Assembly: GCA_016432425.1 (NCBI GenBank)
Contig: CP066688.1
Location: forward strand, 343,398 to 407,397
Length of the DNA stretch: 64,000 nucleotides
Origin: Candidatus Daviesbacteria bacterium
Lineage (GTDB): Bacteria; Patescibacteriota; Microgenomatia; Daviesbacterales; UBA10151
Direction of reading: 5' to 3'
Part shown: positions 32,431-51,181 of the stretch, piece by piece
How positions within the stretch are numbered: position 1 is the stretch's first letter
Layout of the letters: each line of letters starts with the position of its first letter
Translations under genes and position numbers: made by a program
Notes under the pieces: generated by a model
What the model saw: the letters and a program-made list of their open reading frames with translations, nothing else
The model's database searches: none
Told to the model about the DNA's origin: nothing

Positions 32431-34146
32431 TTAACCTTGCTGGCGAGCAAGGATCTCGGCCGGGTTGGAGGTAATTAACTGGTGTTCCTCGGGGGAGGCC
32501 ACTACCCTCATGGCCACATGAGTATTGCCGGCAAAAAAGAGCCCCTGGCCCACTCCGGCAGCCAGCAGCAGACGCTGTTCACCTTCTGATAGATAAAAGA
32601 CTTGGGCCACTTTTTCTATTGAAGCCGGGGCTTGTTTTAGTAGTACCTGGATGGAGGAGTTGGAGATAATTTCTTTGCCCCGGTCAGTCCCCAAAAAATC
32701 TTCCACATCCTGGGTAATGGTGGTCAGCCCCAAATAATATTTGCGGGCCCTTTTGGCCATATCGACCAAGAAATCAGCGCTATCTTGGTTTTGCATTAAA
32801 TACCAGGCCTCATCCACCACCAAAAGGCGTTTTTTGAGTTTAGAGCGCACTTTGGTCCAGATGTACTCCAAAATAATATACATGGCCAAAGGACGCAGTT
32901 GGTCAGGCAGGTCACGCAGGGAAAAGACAGTAAAAGAGTTGCTGATATCAATATTGGAGGGTTGAGAAAAAATACCTGCCAAGGATCCTTTGACAAAGCG
33001 TTCCAGCCGGGCAGAGAGACTGGTGGCAATAGCATCTTCCATACCCATTAAAACTTTGTATAAATCTTCCATTAGAGGGGCGGGGCGGTTTTGGGTTTTG
33101 GGGTCATCAGTAATACCAAAACTGGCATAAGTTTGTTTTAAGCTTCTGTCTAAGATGGCTGCCTCTTGGGGGGAGAGTTGCCCTAAAACCAGTTTTAAAA
33201 AGCCAGTCAAAGACAAAATTTTTCGTCCCAACTCATTTTCTCCTGGATCGCCACTTAAAGATAGGTCAAAAGGGTTGATTTTAACTGCTGAATTAACTGA
33301 AAAGTTTAGATATTCTCCGCCAATAGCTTTGCACAAATTTAAATATTCCTGCTCCGGGTCAATCACCAAAATTTCCGTGCCAAACATTAAAGAACGCAAG
33401 GCTTCCAGCTTAACAAAATACGACTTCCCTGCTCCGGATTTGGCAAAAACTACCGAGTTGGCATTTTCCAAAGAAAAACGGTCGAATAAAATTAATGAAT
33501 CATTGTGTTCGTTAATCCCATACATAATGCCACTGTTGGAAGTTAACTCTGAGGAGGCAAAAGGAAACATGGAAGCCAGTGAAGTAGTGTCCATATTATG
33601 AGTAAAATTAAGCAAATCTTCCCCTAAAGGGAGGCTGGATTTAAAACCTGCCTCCATTTGCAGGGTGGTGGGTCTGGCCGTCATCGACAAAGAGGCCAGA
33701 GTAGATTCTACCAGTTTAGAGGTATTAGCTAACTCTTCTTTATTGTCCGTGGGCAGGGTGACATAAAGGGAATACTGGAAAAACCGCTCGGTGCCCCGCA
33801 CCAATTGATCTTGTAGGGCCCGGGCATCTTCTAAGGCCACTTCCACCGCCGGGTTAACTTGCTGCCCCCGTTCTAAGTCAGTTTGGATGGTGGCTTCCAT
33901 TTCAGCAATTTTCCTTTTTAGATCATTTAAGACTCCACTGGGCTGTTGTGGATAAATAAACATGGATAGATACAGCGAGTGGTCAAAAGAAATGACTGGT
34001 TCCAGCCAATTTAAGTCGACAAATCTGGGGTAAGCAGACACAAAATAGGTGCGATAAAAGGTTTGGTTAATCCGTAAATGGTTAAAATCCACCTCCATTT
34101 CCGCCGGGGCAATCAAATCAACTAAATTTAAATTATGGGGGTTCAT
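32431..34146 (-). CDS. type IV secretion ATPase VirB4/TrbE/PrgJ family (C-terminal ATPase portion)
   Basis: Walker A VVFAKSGAGKSYFVK, Walker B LLVVDEAWYLM, GLTTITQ; overall VirB4-like pattern. Confidence 0.75.
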   Translation of the reverse strand: MNPHNLNLVDLIAPAEMEVDFNHLRINQTFYRTYFVSAYPRFVDLNWLEPVISFDHSLYLSMFIYPQQPSGVLNDLKRKIAEMEATIQTDLERGQQVNPAVEVALEDARALQDQLVRGTERFFQYSLYVTLPTDNKEELANTSKLVESTLASLSMTARPTTLQMEAGFKSSLPLGEDLLNFTHNMDTTSLASMFPFASSELTSNSGIMYGINEHNDSLILFDRFSLENANSVVFAKSGAGKSYFVKLEALRSLMFGTEILVIDPEQEYLNLCKAIGGEYLNFSVNSAVKINPFDLSLSGDPGENELGRKILSLTGFLKLVLGQLSPQEAAILDRSLKQTYASFGITDDPKTQNRPAPLMEDLYKVLMGMEDAIATSLSARLERFVKGSLAGIFSQPSNIDISNSFTVFSLRDLPDQLRPLAMYIILEYIWTKVRSKLKKRLLVVDEAWYLMQNQDSADFLVDMAKRARKYYLGLTTITQDVEDFLGTDRGKEIISNSSIQVLLKQAPASIEKVAQVFYLSEGEQRLLLAAGVGQGLFFAGNTHVAMRVVASPEEHQLITSNPAEILARQQG

Positions 34147-34889
34147 ATATTATCTCCTAACTCTTCTACGACAAAAGGATGGGTTTTGGCCCGGGCCAAA
34201 TTGGGAAAAAAATTGCTGGTCGGAGTAATTGGAATGGGAGTTGGCTTTGGCTGGGTGGGAAAGGGAGTAGCAGCTACTTGGGGAGCTGCTAATTTAACAG
34301 GGGGAACCTGCACCGGAGTAACTATTTTAGTACTAATAGTTTGGTTATAGATATTAAAAAATAATTTGACCAGCTGGGCATTTTTCAACTGCTCTGCCTT
34401 GATGCCGGCCCGGGAGAGCTGGCGGATAATTTGATCGCGCCGGGGTAAAATAATGGCCTTAATTTTAGGCAACTGAGATAGGGAGTTAGGTTTTAAAGAC
34501 AGCCCCAGTTCCAGCGAGGAAACATTGATGGCAATATAGAAATTTTTATCCAACACTTCGTTTTCTTTGATGGTTTGTTGAATAAAATTGCGGTAGCGGG
34601 TCATCATAGCAGAAAGCAGAGGATTGTTTTGTAGTTTTTGGGCGCTATCCAATAAAGTTAAATATGAGCTAATATCTAACTTGATTGACTGGATAATAAT
34701 TTGGATGGGAAAAGATAAAGAGTTGAGCAGTTGGGCAAAGCTGTCGACAATGGCCAGTTGTTCTTTTTGGGAAAGCAGCCCAAAATTGACTGCCCCCACT
34801 TTTAATACTAAGGTGGCACCGCCGTCTTTTAAAAGTAGTAAGTCGCTGTTGATATCTTGAACTGTTAAGCTATTTTGAGTTTTGGTCAT
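34143..34889 (-). CDS. hypothetical protein, possibly detached N-terminal domain of VirB4 (ATGA overlap with downstream ATPase), Pro/Thr-rich tail
   Basis: 248 aa + 571 aa roughly equals typical VirB4 length; 4-nt overlap; no motif of its own. Confidence 0.3.
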   Translation of the reverse strand: MTKTQNSLTVQDINSDLLLLKDGGATLVLKVGAVNFGLLSQKEQLAIVDSFAQLLNSLSFPIQIIIQSIKLDISSYLTLLDSAQKLQNNPLLSAMMTRYRNFIQQTIKENEVLDKNFYIAINVSSLELGLSLKPNSLSQLPKIKAIILPRRDQIIRQLSRAGIKAEQLKNAQLVKLFFNIYNQTISTKIVTPVQVPPVKLAAPQVAATPFPTQPKPTPIPITPTSNFFPNLARAKTHPFVVEELGDNI

Positions 34890-35743
34890 ATTAATTTTTT
34901 AGCTGATACCGTTAAAGGTGATAAGGTCGTACCTTTTAAATTAATCTGAATTTTGTCAAAGGATAAACTCTCTTTTTCCAACTCAATCAGATAAGTACCA
35001 TTGGGTAGGGGGGTGGAACCGGAAAACTGGCCCAATTTGTTAGTTTTTAAGGCTCGAACAGGCAGCCCTGTTTTGTCGTAAATAATCACTACCACTCCTT
35101 CTAAATAATTGCCGGCTGCATCGGTAATAATGCCATTGATCACATTTGGTATGGTGGTCAGCACTAACTGGCCGGGTTTGATTTTACTAGCCGGGACCAC
35201 TTTAATAGGTTCATTTTTAACCATTGGTGGAAGATCCACTGGAGTTGGAGTAGGAGTGGGGGTAACTGGTGGAGTCGGGGTCACAACTGGCGCAGCAGTA
35301 GGAGTGGGCTGAGCAGGGATGATAGTAGCAGTTTGGGTGGGAGGGGTGATTTTGGCAATCACCGGTGGAGTAGCTGTTTCTAGGCTGGCCACCACTTGAG
35401 AAATAATGGACCCGCGCTGGCTAAAAAGGGCCGTTTGCTCCCAGGAATGGTCATTTTTGGACCATACCCACTGAGTAGGAGAATAAACTGCTTTTAAGAA
35501 AGCTTTCACCCAATAATCCAGCGGGCGGTCGGCAATGGGCATAAAAGCCAGCGCGACCCCCACCAGAGCAAAAAAGGTAATCAGCGGCCAGGCTAAAAAT
35601 CCCAGAATAGGAAGCAAAAAGACAAAGATTAAATAAGCTGTTCCCATTCCGAAAGATAAGTATAAAAACTGTTTTAAAGTCATGTCCCCCACTAATCTAA
35701 ATTCAAAAGCAGTGACGTTTTGTGGGATAGGATGGGCTTCCAT
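34886..35743 (-). CDS. VirB3/PrgI-like 2-TM protein fused to Pro/Thr linker and CnaB/carboxypeptidase-regulatory-like beta domain
   Basis: N-terminal YLSFGMGTAYLIFVFLLPILGFLAWPLITFFALVGVALAF; linker TPTPPVTPTPTPTPV; C-terminal GIITDAAGNYLEGVVVIIYDKTGLPV…GTYLIEL. Confidence 0.4.
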   Translation of the reverse strand: MEAHPIPQNVTAFEFRLVGDMTLKQFLYLSFGMGTAYLIFVFLLPILGFLAWPLITFFALVGVALAFMPIADRPLDYWVKAFLKAVYSPTQWVWSKNDHSWEQTALFSQRGSIISQVVASLETATPPVIAKITPPTQTATIIPAQPTPTAAPVVTPTPPVTPTPTPTPVDLPPMVKNEPIKVVPASKIKPGQLVLTTIPNVINGIITDAAGNYLEGVVVIIYDKTGLPVRALKTNKLGQFSGSTPLPNGTYLIELEKESLSFDKIQINLKGTTLSPLTVSAKKLI

Positions 35744-35919
35744 TTAAGAAGGATCATATAGTGTGAAAAAAATGTATGCAAGGGTTTAAAAGTGGATCAT
35801 TTTGGAGCAAACCTATATGAATTTCCTCCTTGCCAATACTAAATATTGAGTGTACATTAAAGGCGTGGTGTATCGTCCTGAGTACTTAAGGGAAATCGAA
35901 GTATCGAAGGGGAAGATAC

Positions 35920-36058
35920 AAAAAAGGGAATGGGGTGCCTCGCCTCGCTGAGCGGGCGAAGCGGGAAATCCCCAACTGTGCCGCAACGGTGATTCTGAAA
36001 AGATAAGTCCGGAGACCGACCACTCCGCCAGCTGGCGGATCAATCCCGAGCCAGGAAA
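35920..36058 (-). ncRNA. candidate structured GC-rich RNA with terminator-like 3' end (unclassified)
   Basis: GC-rich island in AT-rich DNA; perfect palindrome ccgccagctggcgg; nested hairpins cgcc-tcgctgagcg-ggcg enclosed by gggg…cccc followed on minus strand by UUUUUU (forward A-run 35920-35925). Confidence 0.3.
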
Positions 36059-36961
36059 ATGATTACTCAAGAACAAGAATGTATACAATTTATCGCTAAT
36101 TGGAGGAAAGCATCTCCCCAAAATCGTCCTCAAATAGTCCAAGAAATCGCTTCGTGGCATCGGGAAAGTAATCGCCAAATTGCCAAAGGAATAGATTTTT
36201 ATTGGTACGAGGTGGATGAGGAAGGTGATTTTGTCTCCCCAACCAATGGTGAAAAAATCACCGCCAGTATTAATCAAGAGTGCGGTTTGGGACAGATAGA
36301 AACTGGGGTAGTAAAGGAGTTGCAAAGACAAAAAAAATTAGGCGAGGAGCTTTTTATCTGGATTAGTCCGCCATACCCAAATACCTATGTTGATTTAAAA
36401 TTGACTATTACCAATCGGGTAGTTGATAAAGGGAGGGAGTGTTTTGCCAATAGGGCCATCCTTTTTGACTGTGATGAAACGCAAAGCTTGCAGTTGGCTC
36501 GAAAGGTTGCTGAAATCAGTAAAAACCGGCCACTTTTGTCCTCACTGGAGGAAATTAGACGAACTCCGCTAGTGTTAGATCGCAGTTTAGATTGGATAGA
36601 AGTTTTAACCAAAATAACTGGTGATAGTAAGTTGGGAGAAATTATTAACAGTGGAGAAGACCAACAAGCTAAAACTGAAGCAGTGAAGCAGGCTAGTCAG
36701 TTTTATGATGATTTATTGGGGGAGCCAACAATAGAATTGAAGGTAGAAAATATAAATTTTGCCCGCGATTATGGCTTGGGGGATAGTTTAAGCTCTTGTC
36801 CGGTGATTATGGGTGGTTTAACAGCCCCAGAAAACTCTTTTTCTTGCCCCAAATGTCACAGACCAATTCCTTATGGTAGAGGAATGACAGTTTGCCCTAA
36901 TAAAGACTCTTTTGGTAATAGATGTGGAGCTAAAAAAGAAGACTACGGAAATTGTAATTAA
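36059..36961 (+). CDS. hypothetical protein with C-terminal Cys-rich zinc-ribbon-like tail
   Basis: …SCPVIMGG…CPKCHRPIPYGRGMTVCPNKDSFGNRCGAKKEDYGNCN; no other motif. Confidence 0.35.
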   Translation: MITQEQECIQFIANWRKASPQNRPQIVQEIASWHRESNRQIAKGIDFYWYEVDEEGDFVSPTNGEKITASINQECGLGQIETGVVKELQRQKKLGEELFIWISPPYPNTYVDLKLTITNRVVDKGRECFANRAILFDCDETQSLQLARKVAEISKNRPLLSSLEEIRRTPLVLDRSLDWIEVLTKITGDSKLGEIINSGEDQQAKTEAVKQASQFYDDLLGEPTIELKVENINFARDYGLGDSLSSCPVIMGGLTAPENSFSCPKCHRPIPYGRGMTVCPNKDSFGNRCGAKKEDYGNCN

Positions 36962-36997: not shown

Positions 36998-38839
36998 ATG
37001 AGCGAAACTGATCCTTTGATAGAGCAGGAGTTGGGTTCAACAGTGATGGTAGCTGAGAAACCAGAGACACTTAAATCTCAACCTCTTAACCCTTATTCCA
37101 AGCAGCATATTTTTCCAGAAGAATATGCAGAAGAATATGCAAAAGATCATTTTTTGCCTCCTCCTGAGACAAAAGAGAATCATCAATTTGACTTTACAGA
37201 AATGGTGAGAAAGCTAATAACTCAAAAGACTTATCCTATTAGAGGAATTTCTCCTGACTTTAATCCCGCAAAAGCGAGCTTTTATAAAATTGAGCGTCAT
37301 GGTAGTGGCGGATTGGGAGCTAATCTGGTTAATGATCAAGGGGAGACAGTGGCGGTGATGCCTTTTTGGACTGAGGAATACAGTGACCAAGAAAAATACA
37401 TCATTAAACCAGATGGTCCTTATGATGTTCATTATGATCAAAGTGGCCGAGAAGTGATGCGGCTTCTGCGCCAAGAGGGAGGGGCAGGAGTAGTACCTGA
37501 TCCAGAGCCAGCAGATGTGGTGAGCTCAGATGCCGCGAGGGCCTGGTTAGAAAGACAGCTGAGATCTTATGAAGGGTTAGGGAGTGAAATAGATATGTCG
37601 ATAGTGAGCAGTTTGCTGTCTACTATTTCCGGAAGAATTCCTGATGCTTTGGGGGTGAAGAGGGAGTTATTAATCAGAACCCGGGCTCGTATTTTTTATC
37701 ATAATGCTGCTATTAGAGCCAGATTCAGATTAGGGGACTTAATGGAGGTATTTGGACAATTGCAGCTGCCAGAACACCAAGAGATTTTGGGTACCCCCGG
37801 CGTTAGGGAATCGATAGTAGCTTTAATAAACAATGATGGTGAGTTTTTTAGATTAGGTGGTGCAGCAGCTGATGCAGAGAGGACTAATATTAAAAACAAT
37901 CTTCAGGTTGGATTGGGTCTGGCTCCAGATAGAGCAATTTTAGCTTTGGAACTCGCCGAGAAATTTGCCCAAATGACTGGTGAAGCCAGTTACTATGATG
38001 GTATCAGGGATTTAACTGGTAATTGGCAACATTTTGAGGTCGGGGCAACCGGAGAAACAGACTATCAGGCTTATGCTGATTATTTAGCCGAGCATTGGGA
38101 CGATATTGACCAGGCTAATTCCTTACAAGGGCAAGGTTCAGCTAACATGCGAAGGGCCTTTTTTTATCCAGTTTTTTTACAAAAACCTGCTACTGATAAT
38201 AGGGGTCGGGCTGAATATTTAAGGAGATATGCTTATTTGTGGGTAAATTCAGCCGTACATTTTCGCAATCCTGCTTTCAATGCAGAAATGAATTTGTTAG
38301 ATTTCGCCGATCATATTGACAGTCAGTGGATAAAATGGATTGTTTGGGCCGGGAAAGTCTCTAAAGCTCATGGTAATGCCGGCCAATTAAATGAAAAAGG
38401 AGCAGAAAGTATTTTAAATGTACCCTTAATCGAGCCTAATAACTTAAAACAAGACACAAGTGAACAAACTATCAATGGAGTGATGGATAACTACAAAAAG
38501 GCTATTGCCGTTTTTGGCCACCTTAATTATCCTGAAGAAGTTCAGCGGTCCATGACCCATCTATTAAGAGGGGTGATGGAATATGTATCCGAAAGACATA
38601 TTAATCAAGCCCGGGCAGAAGGTTTTATTACTTGGTTGGGTATCAATCAAGATCAAGTTTTTAGTGTCTTAAGATGGGCTGCTAAAATTGGTGCCGTTAC
38701 TTATGTCCAAGCAGAAGGTTTGCGCCATCAACTAGATTTGACTTTATTTAGAGTGGCGGCTGAGGCTGCGGCGCCACATTTGGGCCAAGGTATCTGGGCT
38801 GGAATCAGGGGGTTTTGGGGCGCCATTACTGGTAAATAA
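36998..38839 (+). CDS. hypothetical soluble protein (613 aa)
   Basis: Long ORF, no TM, no recognised domain. Confidence 0.35.
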   Translation: MSETDPLIEQELGSTVMVAEKPETLKSQPLNPYSKQHIFPEEYAEEYAKDHFLPPPETKENHQFDFTEMVRKLITQKTYPIRGISPDFNPAKASFYKIERHGSGGLGANLVNDQGETVAVMPFWTEEYSDQEKYIIKPDGPYDVHYDQSGREVMRLLRQEGGAGVVPDPEPADVVSSDAARAWLERQLRSYEGLGSEIDMSIVSSLLSTISGRIPDALGVKRELLIRTRARIFYHNAAIRARFRLGDLMEVFGQLQLPEHQEILGTPGVRESIVALINNDGEFFRLGGAAADAERTNIKNNLQVGLGLAPDRAILALELAEKFAQMTGEASYYDGIRDLTGNWQHFEVGATGETDYQAYADYLAEHWDDIDQANSLQGQGSANMRRAFFYPVFLQKPATDNRGRAEYLRRYAYLWVNSAVHFRNPAFNAEMNLLDFADHIDSQWIKWIVWAGKVSKAHGNAGQLNEKGAESILNVPLIEPNNLKQDTSEQTINGVMDNYKKAIAVFGHLNYPEEVQRSMTHLLRGVMEYVSERHINQARAEGFITWLGINQDQVFSVLRWAAKIGAVTYVQAEGLRHQLDLTLFRVAAEAAAPHLGQGIWAGIRGFWGAITGK

Positions 38840-38845
38840 GTTAGC

Positions 38846-40522
38846 TTATCGGCGTGGCGGTTGAGATAATTGGCCCAGTCTATTTGTAAAGGAAGTTAAC
38901 CAGCGCGGCGCTCCAGGAGCGGTTGCTCTTTCTTCTAATAATCTAGATCCCGCTGCAGCTGCTCCTCTGCCAAAACTAGGTGCTGCTGCTGTCACCACAG
39001 TTTGCCCCCGGCCCAATCCTGCCATGGCCTCTTGGGGAATACCGGCAATATCTTTAACCCCAAAAGCGTTTTTGACCATATCAGGGATGGCTGGAGTGCC
39101 TAAAATTAAGCCGTAGGCAATAATTAATCTCAACAACTCGATACTTAAACCGCCAAAAAGTGGGGGTGAGGCTACCCAAGACTTTGAGTCAGTTTGCAAG
39201 ATCATACCGGCAAACAAAAAAGCGGCAAAAACAGCCGGGAAAACTAAAGCATTAGCTAAAATTGTTTTCCACCATAAATTTAAAGAGCCTCCCTTGCCGG
39301 GAATAGAGGAATATAAAATAATAAATGGTGAGAGGATAGTGGAAACCAGCAGGGCAATGTAGGCCCCGATTAATTTCCACAGCAACCTAAAAAATTGGAT
39401 CAATAAAGCAATCACTAAAATTAAAGGGACAATCAATCCCACAATGCCGGTGAAGGCTGCTCCCGCTCCTGCTCCCAGGGCAGTGCCTGCTCCCAAACCC
39501 AGAAGTGTACCTGCTCCCGGAAAAACAATAGTGCCCACAATGGTTCCGATAATGGCCGGCAACCCAATGGCTAAAGCTGCTCCTCCCCTTTCACCGCCTA
39601 CAGTTGAAGATAGGGTCCCAAAAAGCCCTTTAGTGACATCATGGATATTTTCCGGAATCCTAAAAGTTGACACAAACATATTGAAAACATTGGAACTATT
39701 GGCTAAATCCTGAACCTGTAAAACATTAGGGGTGGCCAAAAAAATCTGGGCTACTGCTTGGACCCCGACAAAAGAAGTGTCAATTAACAGAGCAGAGAAA
39801 AAATAACTAAAGGTCACTAAAACTATACCTATGACCAGTCCAGGCAAGGCAGCCTGGGCGGAAATAACAGTTTGAGGATTAATTTTAGAGCGGAACATGA
39901 TCATAAAACCAATGGCAATAAAAACAAAAGTAAAAATAAAATAGGCCAAGTTTCTGCTAATTAGCCAAAGTTGCCTAACTGGTTCAATAATGCCCGCTCC
40001 TGACCCGCCCACCTGGGCATAGGCAGGTTTGGCTAAAAAATTATTTCCTACAGAGGCTAAGTATTGGACAGTAGAAGTAGGTGGGTTGGTATACATGGCC
40101 ACAAAAATATTAGTCACTCCTGCTAAAGCCCCCCCACTTTGGCCAGGACTGTAAAGGACAATTTTGCGCTCTTTGCCAAGGGTAATTCCCAAACATTCGT
40201 CCACCGGGCTCATCCCGGCCAGTTCACAAAACATGCTGTGTTCTAAATTTAAAATAGTGTAATTAGAATGTTGGGGAGCCTTATAATTTTCCTGGGTAAC
40301 TGATTTAGGTGTAGGCTTAGGAGAAGGGGAAGGAGAGGTTTGGATACCAGTATTATCTCCTGGAGCTTGAACGGATTTGGAGGTATTAACTGGATCATTA
40401 GTGATTTCAGCCTGGACATTAGTAGCCAGTAGTAAACAGTAAACAGTAAACAGTAAAAATAAAATTATGGCTTTACTGACAACTGACAACTGACGGCTGA
40501 AAGCTGAAATTAGGGCAGACAT
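38846..40522 (-). CDS. VirB6/TrbL-like polytopic membrane protein with signal peptide and Pro/Ser-rich N-terminal region
   Basis: Multiple Gly/Ala-rich TM helices (…GAGTLLGLGAGTALGAGAGAAFTGIVGLIVPLILVIALLIQFF…); located in T4SS cluster. Confidence 0.5.
   Translation of the reverse strand: MSALISAFSRQLSVVSKAIILFLLFTVYCLLLATNVQAEITNDPVNTSKSVQAPGDNTGIQTSPSPSPKPTPKSVTQENYKAPQHSNYTILNLEHSMFCELAGMSPVDECLGITLGKERKIVLYSPGQSGGALAGVTNIFVAMYTNPPTSTVQYLASVGNNFLAKPAYAQVGGSGAGIIEPVRQLWLISRNLAYFIFTFVFIAIGFMIMFRSKINPQTVISAQAALPGLVIGIVLVTFSYFFSALLIDTSFVGVQAVAQIFLATPNVLQVQDLANSSNVFNMFVSTFRIPENIHDVTKGLFGTLSSTVGGERGGAALAIGLPAIIGTIVGTIVFPGAGTLLGLGAGTALGAGAGAAFTGIVGLIVPLILVIALLIQFFRLLWKLIGAYIALLVSTILSPFIILYSSIPGKGGSLNLWWKTILANALVFPAVFAAFLFAGMILQTDSKSWVASPPLFGGLSIELLRLIIAYGLILGTPAIPDMVKNAFGVKDIAGIPQEAMAGLGRGQTVVTAAAPSFGRGAAAAGSRLLEERATAPGAPRWLTSFTNRLGQLSQPPRR
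40431..40508. repeat. two heptanucleotide repeat tracts inside 5' coding region of VirB6-like gene
   Basis: agtaaac x3 plus agtaaaa (40431-40458); tactgac/aactgac/aactgac/ggctgaa/agctgaa (40474-40508). Confidence 0.7.
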
Positions 40523-40569: not shown

Positions 40570-41142
40570 TCACTGTTCAGTAACTGGTTTAACTCCCTCC
40601 GGGAAATTAGCCTGCTGGTAGGTTTCCTCATAATCTTTAACCTTTTCGACTCCTGGAAGAGTTGGCAAATCTGTGCCATAAACCCCAGTGGGTCCCCTTA
40701 AAAAGCTCTTTAGTTGTTCTATGGGGGTACCTTGTAACTTGACATCTGGAGGGGTTTGAGTTTGCTGAATAGTTTCTGATTGGACAAAAAACTTTTCTAT
40801 ATTAAGGGTTTGCCCGGCTTTACTTACTAATTCTGAGAAAAAATTACCTATTCCACTCAAAATCTGGCTTACTAAATCCTGATTAGGTAATTTATCTTTA
40901 ACTGCCTCCGGGGCCAATAAATTCTGGTTCAAATTATAAACAGCCTGTTCCTCAGAATTTATGGTAATAGCCTGAATAGGAGTAGCCAGTAGTAAGTAGC
41001 CAACAGTAAACAGTAAAAATATAATTGTTATCTTATTAACAATTAATTTAGGGGCAGACATAGTTTTAAAATTTACAGGTTCCGTTATAAACACTACTTT
41101 TAAGTGAAGCAATATTTCCCCCACCAACTCTGGCTGGTCCAC
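40570..41142 (-). CDS. small secreted/membrane protein with N-terminus paralogous to VirB6-like protein
   Basis: ITIIFLLFTVGYLLLATPIQAI vs IILFLLFTVYCLLLATNVQAEI; underlying DNA also heptamer-periodic (agtagcc agtagta agtagcc aacagta aacagta). Confidence 0.35.
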   Translation of the reverse strand: MDQPELVGEILLHLKVVFITEPVNFKTMSAPKLIVNKITIIFLLFTVGYLLLATPIQAITINSEEQAVYNLNQNLLAPEAVKDKLPNQDLVSQILSGIGNFFSELVSKAGQTLNIEKFFVQSETIQQTQTPPDVKLQGTPIEQLKSFLRGPTGVYGTDLPTLPGVEKVKDYEETYQQANFPEGVKPVTEQ

Positions 41143-42997
41143 GGGTACTAAAAGTATATTTACTTCCTGGCGGCATCTTTCTATTTACAAGAAGATTATC
41201 ATAAGGATTTTTCAGTTCTCCATAACGACCAATAGCATAACCTACTACTTTACCTCGGTTATCATATCCCACCTGGATAATTACAGCTCCTCTGTAGAAG
41301 GTATCAAGTGTTAAATCTCCTTTATTAATGACCACCCCACTTCCCACCATGAATCTTTGATCAGGAGCAAGATTTAATGATGAAGATTCAAATTCCACCA
41401 TACCGTAATCTCTGGGATAAGTAGAGACTGGATTGGTGGGTTGCTCTGAAAGTTCGACACTAGCACGGTCTATATTACCGGCGGCTAAAGAGGCTGTCAT
41501 AATATTATGAGGTCCAGCATCAAAAGTGGCGCCTACATAATCCTTATTAGGATTCATACAATAGAAGCTTATTTCAGTTGTTTTTGCCACTGGAGAATTA
41601 TTTCTGGTCAGAAATTGAGGAGTAAAACTTAAATATTGTCTCCAAAAATTAGGCATAGTTAATTCCCACACTGCATGGATACGGTTTTCTCGGCAGTTAC
41701 GTTCAGTAGGATTATTAATACAATCCCATGAAGGTCCTTCAAAAATCTGTACGTCTTTAAATACTACTTTAGTAGAGGTAATCACACCTGTAGGTTTTTC
41801 TAAAGTAGGGGTAATTGGTGTATAAGTAGGTGAATATATTTGGTTCAACGGTCTTTGTCGTAGATAATCTTGAACTGCCCAATTACCATCACTTAACTGC
41901 CACCATAAATAACCATCAGTATAAACCGGACCTCCGGTAACAAAAACTGAGCTACCCTCTTTTTCGCAGCGTTGCACTCTACTGTTGGTGGAAGGTTGTT
42001 CCCTAATATTTAAACAGCTGCCGGTCCCGGAAATGACGGCTTGATCTTTAAGAGTAAAAGCAGGGGTGGGAGTAGGTTGAGGAATTTCGGTAGGGGTAGG
42101 GATGACGGTAGGAACAACTAATGGGGAAATATCTGGGGGTGGGTTTTTGGTTAAATAAACCGGGTTAAAATCAATATAATTAATGGTACCCTCACAATCC
42201 TTAGAGTTTCTACTTTCCTCCCTGCACCAACTGGTATTAGCTACCCTAGGTTCTTCTCCTGATTTAGCGAGGATACCATTGCGGTCACCGGGTAAACTTT
42301 TGTGTGCCCAGCCGGCAATGGGTTGGGATTCATCAAAAGGAACTGGTTGGTCACCTTTGTACAAGGCTACATCTACATGAGGGCCGCTATTAAAATGGTC
42401 GGGGCTATGTTCACAAGAAGTAAAACCCAATTCGCTGGTGTAGGCGACTTTGTCTCCTGGTTGTACTTTGATTTCACCCAAATGTTCATATTCGCTGCTG
42501 TAACCATTAGGATGGTCAATTCTGACCATACTGTGCCGTGGGTCGTTGGGATTATTTTCCTTCCCCACCCAAGCTACTACTCCCGGGGCCATTGGCCTGA
42601 TAGGTATAGTGCGGATGATTAATGTTTTTTCTGGCTCACATAAGCCGGCAGCCACGGAAAAGTCTAAATGCCCGCTATGGGCCCCACCGCCTCCGCCGGT
42701 AAAATAACCCCGGCCCCAAAAAGGGAACTGCCAGCCCAAGTTTTGTGCCCCTTGGTCTGGCTGACTGACTATTGGTGAGCTGTCTAATGGCTGATCAGGT
42801 GAAGAAGGTGTGGTCCCACAACCGACAAGAGCCAAACCAGCCAGTGGTAATAGTAAATTTAAATTGGAGTTTGAGGGGTGGTTAGAATCTAAAAAATAAT
42901 TAACGCGAAGTTCGTCTGCCAGAGATGGTCCAATTACTCCTTTACCCCAATCTCTGGAGCCATCATCCAAATAAGTGTAGCCTAATTCTTTACTCAT
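41066..42997 (-). CDS. lipoprotein with M23/LytM-like peptidase domain (HxH degenerated to HVD) plus additional beta-rich domains
   Basis: Lipobox LALVGCG; GAHSGHLDFSVAAG; RIDHPNGYSSEYEHLGEIKVQPGDKV; GPHVDVALYK in place of GPHLHFE. Confidence 0.45.
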   Translation of the reverse strand: MSKELGYTYLDDGSRDWGKGVIGPSLADELRVNYFLDSNHPSNSNLNLLLPLAGLALVGCGTTPSSPDQPLDSSPIVSQPDQGAQNLGWQFPFWGRGYFTGGGGGAHSGHLDFSVAAGLCEPEKTLIIRTIPIRPMAPGVVAWVGKENNPNDPRHSMVRIDHPNGYSSEYEHLGEIKVQPGDKVAYTSELGFTSCEHSPDHFNSGPHVDVALYKGDQPVPFDESQPIAGWAHKSLPGDRNGILAKSGEEPRVANTSWCREESRNSKDCEGTINYIDFNPVYLTKNPPPDISPLVVPTVIPTPTEIPQPTPTPAFTLKDQAVISGTGSCLNIREQPSTNSRVQRCEKEGSSVFVTGGPVYTDGYLWWQLSDGNWAVQDYLRQRPLNQIYSPTYTPITPTLEKPTGVITSTKVVFKDVQIFEGPSWDCINNPTERNCRENRIHAVWELTMPNFWRQYLSFTPQFLTRNNSPVAKTTEISFYCMNPNKDYVGATFDAGPHNIMTASLAAGNIDRASVELSEQPTNPVSTYPRDYGMVEFESSSLNLAPDQRFMVGSGVVINKGDLTLDTFYRGAVIIQVGYDNRGKVVGYAIGRYGELKNPYDNLLVNRKMPPGSKYTFSTRGPARVGGGNIASLKSSVYNGTCKF

Positions 42998-43009: not shown

Positions 43010-43342
43010 TTAAGGACACCAATTAGTTCCGCCAACATTACACAAAGTTTTAATGTCAAAAGTTTTTAAGCCTTCTAAGCCGGTAAAGGCCGCAACCAGC
43101 TGCAATACCAGCCAGGCAATGACCAAAAACAGTATTCCTAAAAGGGCCCAGGTGACTGTCATGGAGGCTGACTGGATGGCTTTGGCATCTCCCCCGGAAG
43201 TTAAGTACCTAATTCCTGCCCACACTAATACCATCACCAAAGCTACAAAAGCCGCGGCTACTGACAAATTAATGATTCTGCCAAAAAGCGCTTCCAGTTG
43301 GGTCAGGCCGGCTGCATCGCTGACTACATTGGCGGGGGTCAT
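43010..43342 (-). CDS. T4SS pilin-like protein (VirB2/TrbC-like, 2 TM), paralog 1
   Basis: Two hydrophobic helices flanking SGGDAKAIQSASMTVTWA motif. Confidence 0.5.
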   Translation of the reverse strand: MTPANVVSDAAGLTQLEALFGRIINLSVAAAFVALVMVLVWAGIRYLTSGGDAKAIQSASMTVTWALLGILFLVIAWLVLQLVAAFTGLEGLKTFDIKTLCNVGGTNWCP

Positions 43343-43379
43343 AATTTAAAATTATCACTCGGATAAGCCCAGGTCAAGC

Positions 43380-43805
43380 TCAGCGTGATAAAGAGGGGGT
43401 GGGGTTTTGTGGTGAAGGAATAGTGAATTCTCTTAACAGATCAACTCCTAAGAATCCTCCGGCCAGTTGGACTATGGCAAAAGCTACTGCCAAAATGGCC
43501 AGCCCCACTAGGGCATGGATAATTCTACCTCTGGCATTGCCAATGGCATCTTTATTACCCCCGGATAAAATCCACTCCACTGCCCCCCAGACTAACATCA
43601 CTAAGGCAATAATTAAAGCAATAATAAAAATTAGCCTAATTCCGGCATTTAAAAAATCAGAGATATTAGCAAAACCTACGTCAGGTTTTTTGATTTGGAT
43701 GGTGGTATCTGCGGCCCACACTCCCACCGGATTTAAAAGTGCTGTTGCGGAGGCGGTTAAGATAGATAGTTTTTTCATTTCTAATTTAATAGTATGCAAC
43801 CCCAA
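43380..43805 (-). CDS. T4SS pilin-like protein, paralog 2 (signal peptide + 2 TM)
   Basis: MKKLSILTASATALL signal; WILSGGNKDAIGNARGRIIHA motif. Confidence 0.5.
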   Translation of the reverse strand: MGLHTIKLEMKKLSILTASATALLNPVGVWAADTTIQIKKPDVGFANISDFLNAGIRLIFIIALIIALVMLVWGAVEWILSGGNKDAIGNARGRIIHALVGLAILAVAFAIVQLAGGFLGVDLLREFTIPSPQNPTPSLSR

Positions 43806-43813
43806 TTAGTTTG

Positions 43814-44149
43814 TCAAGTTTTAAAGAAAGTAAATCCGGTAAAGATTCCCACTAGGTTTAAAATAGCAAAAGTAATACCCAAAAGAATAATGCCGATAAT
43901 AGCATGAGTAATTCTACCTCTGGCATTGCCAATGGCGTCTTTATTGCCGCCTGACATAATCCACTCAAAAGCTCCCCATACCAGCATAAAAACAAAAATA
44001 ACAGCTGCGATTTCATAAATTAAAATTATCAAGTTGCTTAAAAATAAGCTAATTCCGCCGGCTCCGGTCGGGTCTTTTTCTACAAAAGGCTGCAAGGGAA
44101 GAGGGGGAGTAATTTTACCAAAGACATCTTCTACGGCTGCCAGTTTCAT
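43814..44149 (-). CDS. T4SS pilin-like protein, paralog 3
   Basis: WIMSGGNKDAIGNARGRITHA; ~85% nt identity to paralog 2 across motif region. Confidence 0.5.
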   Translation of the reverse strand: MKLAAVEDVFGKITPPLPLQPFVEKDPTGAGGISLFLSNLIILIYEIAAVIFVFMLVWGAFEWIMSGGNKDAIGNARGRITHAIIGIILLGITFAILNLVGIFTGFTFFKT

Positions 44150-44469
44150 TGGCCTCCTTTAATAATTTGGAAATTGGGAATATCAAATAAAGCAGACAAA
44201 ACAAACTGTAAAATTAAAAAGGCCATCATTAAGATTATAAACCCAATCATAGCATGGGTCATCATCCCCCGGCCGGAATTCAATGCTTCTTTGTCTGATC
44301 CGGCAGTTAAAAACTTAAAAGCCCCAAAGATAAAATAAAATACTACCAGCCCTGCCGCAATGGAAAAGGTGGGAGCGACTAACCGGTCAACGCCTTGGCC
44401 CAGCGAGGAAATTTCTCCAAAAGCAAACTCATCTTTTAATTTCACTTCAGCAATTAAATTATTTATCAT
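44146..44469 (-). CDS. T4SS pilin-like protein, paralog 4
   Basis: FLTAGSDKEALNSGRGMMTHA flanked by two TM helices. Confidence 0.5.
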   Translation of the reverse strand: MINNLIAEVKLKDEFAFGEISSLGQGVDRLVAPTFSIAAGLVVFYFIFGAFKFLTAGSDKEALNSGRGMMTHAMIGFIILMMAFLILQFVLSALFDIPNFQIIKGGQ

Positions 44470-44789
44470 ATTGGTATGACTACTTTGCTATTTGGTTGCA
44501 AAATTTCCTTGGCAAATTGGGCGACAGCGAAGGCCAGGGCAATCATAATCAAACCAACGATGGCCCAAATAATTCTGGATCTGGCTTGAGCCAATTTTTG
44601 CTTATCCCCACCGGCCGCAATGTATTGAAAAGCAGCCCAGACAATCCAAAAAAAAGCTAAAAAAGCCGCCAAATAAAAGGTCATGTTCAACAGCCCGGAG
44701 ATAACATCTCCCAAATTATTAAATTTGCCTGGACCGGTTCCCCCAACCGGAGATGTGTCCCAAATTTTTGGTAAATCCTTAAATTCCAT
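44466..44789 (-). CDS. T4SS pilin-like protein, paralog 5
   Basis: YIAAGGDKQKLAQARSRIIWA flanked by two TM helices. Confidence 0.5.
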   Translation of the reverse strand: MEFKDLPKIWDTSPVGGTGPGKFNNLGDVISGLLNMTFYLAAFLAFFWIVWAAFQYIAAGGDKQKLAQARSRIIWAIVGLIMIALAFAVAQFAKEILQPNSKVVIPI

Positions 44790-44791
44790 AA

Positions 44792-45913
44792 TTATACTTC
44801 AGGTAGTATTCCTAGTATATCAACTCCGATAATTTGCATAAAGAGGACGGAAAAGACGACAAATAAAATACCAATAATAGCACTGGCAAAACGGTCATGG
44901 CCGGCTTTTAACCTTTCCGGGCTGCCGGCAGAGGTGATCATCTCCAGTACCCCAATTAACATCAGCAAAAAGGCAACCCCGCCCCCAATACCCAGGCTAA
45001 AACGGAAAAGATCTGTAATTAAAGCTAAAGGTTTAGTGTGGACACAACCAATGGCGGTAGCTACACCCTCTCCACTGTCACAAGCAATGCCGGATGAAGA
45101 AGTACAACCAGGAGTGCCGGGAGTACAAGGAGGGGGAATGGAAGAAGAAAAAGTATGACCCTTCTTATCAGTGGTTATTACTAAATTGGCGGTAGTAAAA
45201 ATATTTTTATTGTCTGGAGTTAAGATTTGAGCTTGGATATTGTATGATCCAGCCGCTAAATCAGCTACTCGATTGGAGATGTTAATACTAGAAGTACCTG
45301 AATTATCAGTTGAGCCTTGTCCAATTGGTCTCCCTTCTAAATTAGTAATCTTCAATTGAATAAAAGCTTTTTCTATCGGACTCCCATCGTTTTTTTTCAA
45401 AGTAGTATTTGCTGTAAAATTTTCTCCTGCTTTACCGCTAGAAGGGTTAATCGATAAAGTTGATTGATAATCAGATTGGGCTGGCTGAACAGTAAATTTG
45501 ATGGTATGACTGGTTTTTTGTAGTTTCCAACTACAAAAAGCTCTATTACCTAAGACGTCAATATTGCATGACTCTTTGTATACTCTGGCAAAGACTTCAT
45601 AGTTACCAGTTGTTTGGGGATCTATTCCATAACTACCCTCAGGATTCCTTGCTAAAAGAGAATCATAACTGCGGCTATCTGTATAACATTGGCTATCGGC
45701 TCTAGAGCCAGTAAATATTAAATCAGCGGCATCCTTTTTAAAATAAATAACTAAACATGTCCCAACATCAATTCCGTCATAAGAAATAAGCAAGTTATCT
45801 TGGGCAGTAGGAGAAGCAGGAGAGAGAGTTATAGAAAGAGAGGCTGAATAAATCTCCAATGGTATTAAGAGAGATATTAAAAGAATACTTAAAAAAGTAA
45901 CTATTTTGGGCAT
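44792..45913 (-). CDS. secreted Ser/Thr-rich protein with C-terminal pilin-like 2-TM domain (candidate tip/adhesin pilin)
   Basis: Signal peptide; ~280-aa extracellular region; C-terminal MITSAGSPERLKAGHDRFASAIIG between two TM helices. Confidence 0.45.
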   Translation of the reverse strand: MPKIVTFLSILLISLLIPLEIYSASLSITLSPASPTAQDNLLISYDGIDVGTCLVIYFKKDAADLIFTGSRADSQCYTDSRSYDSLLARNPEGSYGIDPQTTGNYEVFARVYKESCNIDVLGNRAFCSWKLQKTSHTIKFTVQPAQSDYQSTLSINPSSGKAGENFTANTTLKKNDGSPIEKAFIQLKITNLEGRPIGQGSTDNSGTSSINISNRVADLAAGSYNIQAQILTPDNKNIFTTANLVITTDKKGHTFSSSIPPPCTPGTPGCTSSSGIACDSGEGVATAIGCVHTKPLALITDLFRFSLGIGGGVAFLLMLIGVLEMITSAGSPERLKAGHDRFASAIIGILFVVFSVLFMQIIGVDILGILPEV

Positions 45914-45988
45914 TAACCCTAGATTAGCACATGGGTAGGGTACAGTTCAAAGCGTTTCACAAAGTTGTGTTAAAATTAAACTTACTGC

Positions 45989-47707
45989 ATGCGAAAATTT
46001 ATCCTGTTACTGCTCTCGTTGTTTTTTCTATTTACTGTGCCCTTAATGATATTCACTATTAAAGCTGATGAAATTGAGGATTTACAAAAGCAAATTGATC
46101 AACTAAATGCAGCCAGACAGCTATCAATTGCTGCCACTAAACCTTTGGAAGGACAACTCTCTGCCCTAGAGCGCCAACTGGCTCAAATTCAAGCCTCCTT
46201 AGATAATTTAGCTGCTGCCATTAAGAGAAAACAAAATGATTTGGACTTACGAGAAGAAAAAATTGTTCAGGAGCAGGTGACTTTAGAGGCCAGCATTAAG
46301 TCTTATTATATTAGCTCCTTTCAGGCTGCCCCCCTGCTGGTGCTGCTATCTTCCGCCCACCCCAGTGATTTATTCCGGGAGTTGTCCTTTCAACTGAACT
46401 CTGCCAAACAAAACCGCCAGACAATTATTAATATTACCAACGAAATTTTAGATTTACTAAAACAAAAAGATAAACTGGAAAAAGACAAAGCCGGGCTGGC
46501 TTCCCTGCAAGCTCAGGCAGATACCAATGCCCAATTTATTGGCGGGGAAGTAAAAAAAGCTAAAGCTTACCAGGCGGATTTAACTTCTAAAATTGTGGCT
46601 TTAACTGCCAAACAGCAGCAGATTTTATCCCAGAGACTGGCCAGTTTAAACATTTCCCGCTCAGCTGCTTCCATTGGGGCTTGTAGCGATGATCGGCACA
46701 TTGATCCGGGATTTTCTCCCCGGCTGGCTTTTTTTACCTATGGGGTACCCAATAGAACTGGGCTTAACCAATATGGGGCAGACGGCAGGGGTAGGGCCGG
46801 ACAAAATGTCGAGCAAATTTTAAATGCTTACTATACTAATTTTGAACTTAAAAAAGATTACCGGACTGATATCAATATTAATGTGGAAGGACATGGAGCG
46901 TTTAATATTGAAGATTATGTCAAAAGGATTTATGAAATGCCTGCTAGTTTTCATCCTGAGGCTCTCAAAGCCCAAGCTGTGGCGGCCCGATCTTATGCCC
47001 TTTCTTACACCAACAATGGGGCAGGTTCCATTTGTACCACAGAGCGGTGTCAGGTTTTTAAACCTGAGCCCAAAGGTGGGGTTTGGGAAGAGGCAGTTAA
47101 TGCCACCCGTGGCTGGGTGATGGTACAGGGAGGCAGCCCAGTGAAAGCTTGGTATTCTTCTACCCATGGGGGATATATTTTGTCCTCCGGGGAGATCGGC
47201 TGGTCTGATACTTCTTGGACCAAACACGGGGTAGATACAGTTGTCGGCAGTGCTAGTGGATTTACTGATTTACAGGCTGGAGCTTATGATAAAGGTTCCC
47301 CCTGGTTTTATTGTGACTGGGGTTTCCGCAAGGAGTTCAGTAAAACCGCCTGGCTAGAACCCTCAGAAGTAGTAGATATTATTAATACTTTACTTTTAAC
47401 TCAGGCAGACTCTTCCACCGGTGAGCATCTTTACCAAACTGATAAACCCAATCCGGCTGGGACAGATAATTGGGACGAGGAAAAAGTCAAACAGGAGTTG
47501 CGAAATAAAGGCCTAACTCCTTACAATAATATTTCCAGTGTCTCAATTTCAGCAGATTTTGGCAGTGGGAGAACTGCTTCTGTTAATGTCTCTGGTGATG
47601 GTGGGTCCAGAAGCTTCTCCGGGGCAGATTTTAAAAATAGATTTAATTTGCGGGCTCCGGCTAATTTACAAATTGTGGGACCGCTGTTTAATGTAGAACA
47701 AAAATAA
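45989..47707 (+). CDS. SpoIID/LytB-domain protein with N-terminal coiled coil
   Basis: …ALKAQAVAARSYALSYTNNGAGSICTTERCQVF…WYSSTHGGY… typical SpoIID/LytB core. Confidence 0.65.
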   Translation: MRKFILLLLSLFFLFTVPLMIFTIKADEIEDLQKQIDQLNAARQLSIAATKPLEGQLSALERQLAQIQASLDNLAAAIKRKQNDLDLREEKIVQEQVTLEASIKSYYISSFQAAPLLVLLSSAHPSDLFRELSFQLNSAKQNRQTIINITNEILDLLKQKDKLEKDKAGLASLQAQADTNAQFIGGEVKKAKAYQADLTSKIVALTAKQQQILSQRLASLNISRSAASIGACSDDRHIDPGFSPRLAFFTYGVPNRTGLNQYGADGRGRAGQNVEQILNAYYTNFELKKDYRTDININVEGHGAFNIEDYVKRIYEMPASFHPEALKAQAVAARSYALSYTNNGAGSICTTERCQVFKPEPKGGVWEEAVNATRGWVMVQGGSPVKAWYSSTHGGYILSSGEIGWSDTSWTKHGVDTVVGSASGFTDLQAGAYDKGSPWFYCDWGFRKEFSKTAWLEPSEVVDIINTLLLTQADSSTGEHLYQTDKPNPAGTDNWDEEKVKQELRNKGLTPYNNISSVSISADFGSGRTASVNVSGDGGSRSFSGADFKNRFNLRAPANLQIVGPLFNVEQK

Positions 47708-50329: not shown

Positions 50330-50770
50330 ATGAAGATTCTCAATAAAAAAGCTCTTCACAACTATTATATTCTGGAATCTATTGAAGCTGGAATTTCACT
50401 TTTGGGTAGTGAGGTTAAATCACTGCGGCAAGGTCGAGCTGACTTAGGGGAAGCTTATGTGAGGGTAATTAATAACGAGGTGTTCTTGATTAATGCCAAT
50501 ATTCCCCGTTACAGCCAAACTGCAGCTCGGGATTATGACCCTCTTCGATCCCGCAAGCTGCTGTTACACAAGGGTCAAATCCACTCCTTGCTGGGTAAAA
50601 TTTCCGGTCAAGCCACCACTTTGGTGCCGGTGTCAGTTTATGAGAAAAATAACCGCTTTAAGGTTCAAGTAGGACTGGCCAGAAGCAAAAAACAATTTGA
50701 TAAAAGGGCTGCCATTAAAGCTCGCGACCAAGCTCGCCGCATTGAACAAGAGCTGCGAGGTAAAGAATAA
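50330..50770 (+). CDS. smpB: SsrA-binding protein
   Basis: Typical SmpB sequence (…GSEVKSLRQGRADLGEAYV…), adjacent to tmRNA. Confidence 0.9.
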   Translation: MKILNKKALHNYYILESIEAGISLLGSEVKSLRQGRADLGEAYVRVINNEVFLINANIPRYSQTAARDYDPLRSRKLLLHKGQIHSLLGKISGQATTLVPVSVYEKNNRFKVQVGLARSKKQFDKRAAIKARDQARRIEQELRGKE

Positions 50771-50815: not shown

Positions 50816-51181
50816 GGGGATGTTTAGTTTTCGACAGGTTAGCTCTTTAAAAACTGCAAGCCGCTAAAGAAATCTTAAGCGTAAAATATGGTTTCAAAAT
50901 TTAAACGGCAATAATAATGTCCGTTATGCATACGCCTAATTTAGGCCGGTAGCATTATCTTAAGATAATTTCTTCAAAGCGGATTACTTAAGGTATATAC
51001 AAAGCTTTGATGCAATAATTTTAGTGTTGGTTGATCTAAAATTATTTAAGACAACTCAATCAAGTTTTAGTTTTCCTGCTAGTTTGGTTACAACTAAGAC
51101 TTAAAAATATGCTAGCTAAGCTTGTAGAAGTTTTTGAGGAAACTTTCCCGGACGAGGGTGCAATTCCCTCCATCTCCACCA
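50816..51181 (+). ncRNA. ssrA: tmRNA (transfer-messenger RNA)
   Basis: 5' GGGGAUGUUUAGUUUUCGACAGG and 3' GGACGAGGGUGCAAUUCCCUCCAUCUCCACCA tRNA-like ends, G3:U wobble in acceptor stem, T-arm GAGGG-UGCAAUU-CCCUC; downstream of smpB. Confidence 0.8.

Follow-up and report, generated by a model that had tools for sequence, protein, structure and literature searches.

Does a row of six neighbouring genes for small, related membrane proteins encode interchangeable copies of one protein or distinct parts of one machine? This question is posed by positions 43010-45913 of a 64,000-nucleotide (nt) stretch of Candidatus Daviesbacteria DNA (contig CP066688.1; the whole stretch is referred to as the window), where six consecutive minus-strand open reading frames (ORFs) share a two-helix module and lie near genes of a T4SS (type IV secretion system). 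These six are old, specialised and non-interchangeable subunits, as follows from their orthology by position, their fixed order and the restriction of expansions to particular classes. With moderate confidence, the array can be regarded as the pilin-like subunit operon of a chromosomal, origin-proximal, monoderm-type T4SS, in which six non-redundant subunits of the Pfam family PF18895 would build an ordered pilus-like structure; for membrane topology, polymerisation and subunit placement, the arrangements given here are those that we infer.

All six ORFs were recovered at the coordinates given in a preliminary description of this DNA, and every loop motif quoted there is found in the translated sequences. 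They are transcribed in the order B, s1, s2, s3, s4, s5, where B is the large gene and s1-s5 are small subunits of classes 1-5 (Table 1). Only 2 nt separate the stop codon of B from the start of s1, and the s1 stop/s2 start and the s2 stop/s3 start both overlap as ATGA; such tight packing suggests coupled, matched synthesis of B, s1, s2 and s3. No intrinsic terminators were found on the coding strand within the array. In Kyte-Doolittle profiles, each small protein has two strongly hydrophobic segments, and B has a signal-like segment at its N-terminus and two hydrophobic segments at its C-terminus. AlphaFold places the paired helices at residues 295-327 and 332-367 of B and at 39-71 and 76-109 of s4, so that the hairpin topology first ascribed to the modules is borne out by both approaches. 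B and s4 are 100% identical to the hypothetical proteins HYW45_01960 and HYW45_01940 of a Ca. Daviesbacteria metagenome-assembled genome (MAG). The five small genes are real as well, and the size range of 107-141 amino acids (aa) initially given for them becomes 107-132 aa once s4 starts at ATG. The ORF finder opens s4 at a TTG (43805, 141 aa); the ATG at 43778 (132 aa) is most likely the true start, because it equals the NCBI model and lies 10 nt after a conserved -10 box.

All six proteins reach the gathering score of PF18895 (T4SS_pilin; 26.6 bits, whole-protein), with 26.7 bits for s5, 33.1 for s4, 31.6 for s3, 29.5 for s2, 40.7 for s1 and 27.7 for B, and it is the top and sole above-threshold Pfam family for each of them. 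Among 56 homologs of B, 55 match it too. Moreover, the 373-aa B protein does end in the same module as the small proteins, as had been proposed, since its PF18895 score and the C-terminal hairpin of its AlphaFold model agree on this point. A hidden Markov model (HMM) built from the six found no further copy of the module in the 64-kb window. The T4SS-pilin-like identity assigned at the outset is thus upheld by six PF18895 members that adjoin a T4SS, where the label 'pilin' rests on the name of the Pfam family.

Arrays of this kind have been reported before, and the one described here is a further case of the published VirB2-like pilin arrays, the existence of which is not new in itself. A survey of 383 assemblies lists 441 arrays, each with 2-11 pilin genes and found above all in Microgenomatia and Saccharimonadia, with copies that are on average 25% and at most 54% identical (Quinonero-Coronel 2025, Microb Genom, PMC12102498). 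In Southlakia epibionticum, SEML1_0014-0019 are six PF18895 genes classed as essential, two of which also match the Pfam family TrbC/VirB2, PF04956 (Wang 2023, Cell, including Table S2, PMC10633639). The same array type is highlighted in a 2025 review (PMC12857230). With the published Patescibacterial arrays, the window array shares tandem PF18895 genes, a low identity of the copies and a relaxase-less monoderm VirB4/TrsD/PrgI cluster near dnaA (PMC12102498); it belongs to Microgenomatia, a class in which they are especially common, and it resembles the Southlakia array in its six genes. In effect, it has what defines a Patescibacterial VirB2-like array, namely six tandem pilin-profile genes and a Patescibacteria-type VirB4 about 9 kb away. 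Its expansion, initially called unusual, is so by comparison with classical T4SSs, but within Patescibacteria such arrays are the published norm (PMC12102498, PMC10633639, PMC12857230).

This context also settles whether unrelated two-helix proteins (holins, for instance, toxin/immunity pairs or peptides of bacteriocin type) might lie beside a T4SS by chance. The two-helix hairpin is a generic fold, and Foldseek gave only non-specific helical matches, both of which would suit such an origin. It is nevertheless refuted: all six proteins pass PF18895, no holin or other family comes close (every other score lies far below its cutoff), the synteny of the array with SpoIID, M23, PrgI and VirB4 genes is kept across species, and a homologous array lies inside the essential T4SS cluster of Southlakia.

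The conservation of the array was assessed by scanning one genome per species, which gave 80 loci encoding relatives of B, mostly from Daviesbacteria, with a few from Gottesmanbacteria, Levybacteria and unclassified Microgenomates; composition was counted in the 61 arrays not cut by a contig end. Exactly six modules are present in 46 of these 61, and class-specific HMMs return the order B-1-2-3-4-5 in 44. For each of the six window proteins, the best match within the 46 six-module loci, scored with the window sequences only, occupies the same ordinal position in 43-45 cases (among them s1 43, s2 44, s3 45, s4 44, s5 45). A window protein shares 51-58% identity with its orthologs at the same position, whereas paralogs within a genome have a mean identity of 25-37% (46% for s3/s4), and each position has a conserved consensus of its own.

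Such regularity bears on the view that the six are recently expanded, interchangeable pilin variants that provide antigenic or host-range variation of one filament, a view that is raised in the published discussion by analogy with Bartonella and Anaplasma (PMC12102498). Some genomes do carry 7-11 modules, the extras being of class 4 or 3, and a gene-conversion patch joins s3 and s4. Yet the positional orthology in 43-45 of 46 species-level loci, the fixed B-1-2-3-4-5 order, the higher identity of orthologs than of paralogs and the class-specific consensus, signal peptide or cysteine pattern all speak against it, as does the finding that all six genes of this family are individually essential in Southlakia (PMC10633639). 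A fixed set of six old subunits is therefore evidence against antigenic variation of the whole array, for which this improbable view is largely refuted. In consequence, two suggestions of the preliminary description find no support: recent duplication is contradicted by six classes of ancient origin, each with orthologs at its own position in dozens of species, and antigenic diversification of the whole array by its fixed composition.

Departures from the hexad follow a pattern. Two apparent seven-module arrays result from split ORFs, class 4 in locus L034 (17263-17825) and class 5 in L048 (4917-5521). Each gene is broken into a pair of short or overlapping ORFs, through a frameshift, a pseudogene or an assembly error, and the module count is thereby raised to seven. 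Real expansions reach 11 modules, and the added copies nearly always belong to class 4, sometimes to class 3 and hardly ever to another class. The modules of the Gottesmanbacteria and Levybacteria loci are fewer and less classifiable. From the sequences compared, this argues that the fixed hexad may be a Daviesbacteria-level feature, and the six need not be orthologous to the six of Southlakia.

Several observations were made beside these counts. In several species (L015, L026, L033, L034 and L005), other genes spanning 2-5 kb interrupt the array, in every case after the class-2 and before the class-3 module. The class-3 ORF has an N-terminal extension of about 100-150 aa in many loci, and s3 of the window is without it. 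Many MAGs with the array (loci L009-L084; binchicken and SRP co-assemblies) are titled 'uncultured Gammaproteobacteria bacterium', a label that looks like a placeholder or an error.

Within the set, s3 and s4 form the closest pair in all genomes. In the window, their proteins are 57-60% identical over the local alignment, above the maximum of 54% reported for published arrays (PMC12102498), and the other 14 of the 15 pairs range from 19 to 39%; the two genes share 58% nt identity overall. The 15-aa loop motif is identical in both, as first described, and its coding sequences agree in 41 of 45 nt (91%, in place of the earlier figure of about 85%), including an exact run of 28 nt. Given identical amino acids and the codon usage of this genome, 34.2 +/- 2.2 identical bases would be expected (P ~0.002). 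A longer direct repeat of 121 nt (43513-43633 and 43902-44022) is 74% identical. Among 47 genomes, a loop identical at 15 of 15 positions is found only in the window and in L059, and the shared window residues N4, D6, I8 and N10 differ from both class consensuses. The patch would best be read as a short gene-conversion tract. The likeness between s3 and s4 is long-standing in the clade and would have been sharpened in this genome by the tract; only the loop patch is recent. Gene conversion between the neighbouring copies at 43380-43805 and 43814-44149, proposed from the start, is accordingly supported at the loop patch with its 28-nt run, and only there. A recent duplication of s3/s4 was considered and rejected, as the pair is present in canonical order in 44 of 61 related loci.

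The junction between these two genes also carries a sigma-70-type promoter-like site with a consensus score of 10/12. A site scoring at least 10/12 occurs at the s3-s4 junction in 36 of 44 canonical loci, compared with 1-3 of 44 at each of the four remaining junctions; a consensus -35/-10 promoter is absent upstream of B, where 3 of 45 loci have such a site. The s3-s4 sites have an invariant TTGACA and a spacer of 17-18 nt. Since 10 nt separate the end of the -10 box from the s4 ATG in the window, and about 10 nt do so in most loci, the s4 transcript would have a very short leader or none. The TTGACA -35 box (43812-43817) encloses the TGA (43814-43816) that ends s3, and coding and promoter constraints therefore overlap at this point. 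Additionally, the N-terminus of s4 is signal-peptide-like (MKKLSILTASATALLNPVGVWA/AD), and the consensus of 41 orthologs keeps MKKLAA...AFAQ. Signal-like N-termini were found only in s4 and B, which makes s4 the sole small subunit with a conserved one, and s4 is a member of the class that is amplified in variant arrays. On the strength of its private conserved promoter, its signal peptide and this amplification, s4 is a candidate major subunit; the simplest reading is that it would be abundant and the others its low-copy partners.

The large protein B has a different architecture. Its AlphaFold model comprises a signal-like N-terminus, two immunoglobulin (Ig)-like beta-sandwich domains (about 27-143 and 149-248), a linker with four cysteines (C263, C270, C278 and C290) and the hairpin at 295-367; the ectodomain gives Ig-like, adhesin-type fold matches. 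The description of B as Ser/Thr-rich stands in a milder form, with 19.3% of these residues against a background of 12.6%. Across 56 homologs, which are 283-653 aa long and in some cases contain Fn3 domains, identity is 17% in the ectodomain, 44% in the cysteine linker and 65% in the hairpin. A fast-evolving Ig-like ectodomain joined to a conserved anchor makes B a candidate tip or contact subunit. The family of such ectodomain-on-hairpin proteins is very large, as a profile search of 1.84 billion cluster representatives returned 2,552 clusters with a threshold of E<=1e-30 and 6,242 with one of E<=1e-10. In the largest Southlakia member, the domain lies at residues 115-180 (PMC10633639). In the passages searched, the published Patescibacterial array papers do not single out this family, nor do they mention positional orthology, a subunit promoter, class-restricted amplification or the Ig-like fusion.

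Upstream of B, an extended -10-like motif, TGTGCTAAGCT, was noticed (window version TGTGCTAATCT). Similar motifs lie 7-9 nt before the B ATG in 18 of 45 loci, among them L006, L010, L015, L016, L021, L025, L026, L029 and L035, as against 7 hits among 920 control windows. An additional copy in inverted orientation creates the palindrome TGTGCTAAGCCACA in some loci, which may be an operator common to B and the divergent SpoIID gene.

The orientation of the subunits in the membrane can be proposed from several features. The signal peptide of B would place its ectodomain on the outer side of the cell, and the small subunits have loops with a net positive charge (+0.8 to +2.5). In B, a cysteine pair precedes helix 1 in 46 of 46 loci; in s5, helix 2 is followed by at least two cysteines in 33 of 46 orthologs. 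With the cysteine pairs taken as extracytoplasmic, these features fit a topology in which the two termini lie outside and the loop is cytoplasmic. VirB2-type pilins likewise have both ends outside and the loop inside.

On this basis, a mechanism can be outlined. Each of the six hairpin subunits would enter the membrane in such a way that its two ends face outward and its basic loop faces the cytoplasm, and the VirB4 machine would assemble the subunits into an ordered, pilus-like structure that crosses the wall. Its bulk would come from s4, which is separately transcribed in this scheme, and B, probably with the co-translated s1-s3, would form a low-copy initiating or tip complex that shows its variable ectodomain to the host cell. 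Flanking peptidoglycan hydrolases (the SpoIID and M23 proteins and a lytic-transglycosylase-like 675-aa ORF) may open the wall. The set of major pilin, minor pilins and tip adhesin envisaged in the preliminary description thereby gains indirect support from the s4 promoter, the s4 signal peptide and the B ectodomain, with the roles themselves remaining proposals. A more explicit version is offered tentatively: an ordered heteromeric filament crossing the wall of a monoderm bacterium, with B as the tip, s1-s3 as a priming complex, a leaderless and separately promoted s4 as the shaft, and s5 in a closing or anchoring role. If true, this would be a T4SS counterpart of the minor-pilin initiation complexes known from type IV pili and type II secretion, without equivalent among characterised T4SSs, and a host-recognition Ig-like ectodomain would be covalently part of a VirB2-like subunit.

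Several points weigh against a pilus-like structure. Pfam gave no match to PF04956 (VirB2/TrbC) in the six proteins at E<=0.1, and a PDB sequence search with the class-4 alignment returned no pilin, only phospholamban (E 0.32). Foldseek with the s4 model against the PDB found nothing at E<=0.001 and only non-specific helical proteins at E>=2.5, a bare helical hairpin having little discriminating power in such a search. In hhalign, class-1 and class-4 alignments scored a probability below 1% against 32 VirB2 sequences, and likewise against a single one; the VirB2 alignment is narrow (Agrobacterium/Rhizobiales type), and distant homology may escape it. Moreover, the s4 promoter is a consensus match only, and with the region definitions used it was not found at the extra class-4 copies of expanded, more divergent arrays. 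Signal peptides and topology were judged by hydropathy, charge and inspection, and the major, minor and tip roles are proposed from promoter conservation, gene order and analogy. We know of no filament seen in any Patescibacterium. Given the null results with PF04956, the PDB, Foldseek and hhalign, homology of the array proteins to VirB2 is not claimed from these data.

A relationship in another direction emerged for class 1. The s1 protein scores 39.8 bits with NCBIfam NF045849, the Mbov_0395 family of Mycoplasma integrative and conjugative elements (ICEs), which is 0.2 below the cutoff of 40, with 73 of 80 model positions aligned, and 42 of 43 class-1 orthologs match it at E<=0.001. The remaining scores are 18.0 bits for s5, 17.7 for s2 and 11.4 for s4, with no match for s3 and B. 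Thus, s1 is a relative, not a member, of NF045849. This link hints that the hairpin subunit may be native to monoderm T4SSs; if so, it would not have been borrowed from Gram-negative systems, an origin of the pilin that the published discussion leaves open (PMC12102498).

The same link can be turned against a pilus. A serious, although less probable, rival is that the six serve as membrane-embedded components of the translocon, where they would line a channel or build a hetero-oligomeric ring together with VirB3- or VirB6-like partners and never leave the membrane; the ectodomain of B would then simply be a wall-spanning or host-contact domain on a hairpin anchor. The undetectable homology to canonical VirB2 and the fixed, stoichiometric-looking composition fit such a translocon, and mycoplasmas, from which the relatives of class 1 come, have to our knowledge neither a wall nor a known pilus. 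Small mycoplasma ICE membrane proteins, CDS13 and CDS15, are called VirB3-like by some authors (review, PMC12857230), and classical Gram-positive T4SSs are without a pilus (PMC12102498). Judging by the order of locus tags beside the VirB4 gene, Mbov_0395 would be CDS13 or CDS15. In the other direction, a private strong promoter and the amplification of one class fit a bulk polymer better than a defined ring, a separate PrgI/VirB3 gene is already there, and the predicted helices of 33-34 residues (AlphaFold) are longer than a bilayer needs. Two members of the Southlakia array also match Pfam TrbC/VirB2, which again favours the pilus-like structure (Wang 2023, Table S2).

Comparison with known machines places this pilus-like reading more precisely. 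Like VirB2, TrbC and TraA, the window proteins are small, have two long hydrophobic helices and a short basic loop, and are encoded alongside a VirB4 ATPase; the leader of s4 looks cleavable, and in the topology proposed here both ends would lie outside. Unlike those proteins, they show no detected link to them by sequence, profile or fold search. Classical Gram-negative T4SSs have one pilin and a separate VirB5 tip protein, whereas in the window a monoderm host encodes six hairpin proteins and no VirB5. As in the Mycoplasma ICE family of Mbov_0395 and MMCAP2_0565, s1 is encoded near a monoderm-type VirB4; unlike the window system, those ICEs are conjugative, encode a coupling protein and reside in hosts without a wall. 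A resemblance in working principle alone connects the array with GspH-I-J-K and GspG of the type II secretion system (T2SS) and with the bulky-domain minor pilins of the TcpB/CofB type, where an abundant subunit and single-copy, divergent, conserved paralogs are encoded together. In both cases, one paralog carries a large beta-rich extra domain with a presumed place at the tip. The fold and the machinery are unrelated, with VirB4 and not PilB/GspE as the assembly ATPase. By inspection, the G/FxxxE prepilin motif (conserved Gly, Glu5) and class III signal peptides are missing from all six N-termini, and no type IV pilin family of Pfam was matched by the six proteins.

The value of this comparative anatomy is that it turns a vague 'series of pilins' into specific, checkable subunit roles: one class as a candidate shaft subunit, four single-copy classes, and an ectodomain-plus-anchor family as a candidate host-contact determinant. 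In the one species tested, the T4SS genes, including the pilin array, are essential for epibiotic life (PMC10633639), and according to a perspective in PNAS from 2024, what the T4SS does in Saccharibacteria is 'completely unknown' (PMC11665869). The predictions could be useful for work in tractable Saccharibacteria and for host-range analyses in metagenomes.

Table 1. Coordinates of the array, its internal features and the surrounding genes in the window.
Feature	Position	Strand	Details
Gene B	44792-45913	-	373 aa; NCBI HYW45_01960; first in transcription order
s1 (class 1)	44466-44789	-	107 aa; loop AGGDKQKLAQARSRI
s2 (class 2)	44146-44469	-	107 aa; loop AGSDKEALNSGRG
s3 (class 3)	43814-44149	-	111 aa; loop SGGNKDAIGNARGRI
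s4 (class 4)	43380-43778	-	132 aa from ATG; NCBI HYW45_01940; loop SGGNKDAIGNARGRI; Pro-rich C-tail
s5 (class 5)	43010-43342	-	110 aa; loop SGGDAKAIQSAS; C-terminal Cys pair CNVGGTNWCP
s3 side of loop patch	43910-43954	-	45 nt encoding the shared loop motif
s4 side of loop patch	43521-43565	-	45 nt encoding the shared 15-aa loop motif
Sigma-70-type promoter-like site	43789-43817	-	TTGACA, 17 nt, TACTAT; s3-s4 junction
Extended -10-like motif upstream of B	45920-45935	-	
SpoIID-domain protein (peptidoglycan lytic transglycosylase family)	45989-47707	+	PF08486, 63.4 bits; divergent, upstream of B
M23-family peptidase	41066-42997	-	643 aa; PF01551, 37.8 bits; 12 nt downstream of s5
Polytopic membrane protein	38846-40522	-	558 aa; several hydrophobic segments, signal-like N-terminus
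PrgI-family (VirB3-like) protein	34886-35743	-	PF12666, 32.5 bits
TrsD-like protein, related to the VirB4 N-terminal part	34143-34889	-	NF041427, E 1.8e-4; TraC_F_IV weak
VirB4-type ATPase, CD1110 family	32431-34146	-	NF045971, 386.7 bits (cutoff 325); P-loop_TraG, 88.3 bits
ORF downstream of virB4	30381-32408	-	675 aa
dnaN	28833-29924		
dnaA	26790-28205		
Cobalamin riboswitch	35879-36038	+	Rfam RF00174, 40.6 bits (gathering 31.5)
First riboswitch-adjoining ORF	36059-36961	+	300 aa; Cys-rich C-terminus
Second riboswitch-adjoining ORF	36998-38839	+	613 aa
smpB	50330-50770	+	
tmRNA gene	50816-51181	+	full-length; 123 bits
Cys-rich protein	7763-10210	-	815 aa

The array lies about 9 kb from the VirB4/TrsD/PrgI cluster, in which the TrsD-like gene overlaps the start of virB4 by 4 nt, and its distance to dnaA is about 15 kb. 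Among the window ORFs scanned within 64 kb, family matches revealed neither a relaxase nor a coupling protein, and a Walker A motif is absent from the eight family-less ORFs that were inspected. With VirB4, TrsD and PrgI and neither a relaxase nor a coupling protein in the cluster, the system within the window corresponds to a monoderm T4SS of the MPF-FATA type. The 558-aa polytopic protein has no family match in Pfam or NCBIfam and is a candidate VirB6-like channel subunit. On the downstream side of the array, the M23 peptidase is a probable partner in cell-wall remodelling, and a gene of 589-648 aa follows the array in L001 and L003 too; the SpoIID-domain gene occupies the same position in these two loci.

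Directly downstream of virB4, the 675-aa ORF has no Pfam or NCBIfam match. By eye, it contains a Gly-rich segment, one membrane helix, a lytic-transglycosylase-like ARVETPS...GALGIMQIQ and a HELSH zinc-protease motif, and it may be a two-domain VirB1-like wall hydrolase missed by profile searches.

The T4SS cluster also contains a cobalamin riboswitch, directly upstream of two ORFs without family match on the strand opposite to the T4SS genes. A second Daviesbacteria species (L003) repeats this layout, with a riboswitch at 20662-20859 (minus strand, 43.9 bits) followed by genes of 311 and 1057 aa. Family-less, B12-regulated genes are here embedded in the T4SS locus of a reduced genome.

Elsewhere in the window and unrelated to the array, the 815-aa Cys-rich protein, which has no Pfam match, looks secreted and carries a HELGH metalloprotease motif. 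Finally, smpB is directly followed by a tmRNA gene, and this pair adjoins the pilin array in seven related loci as well.

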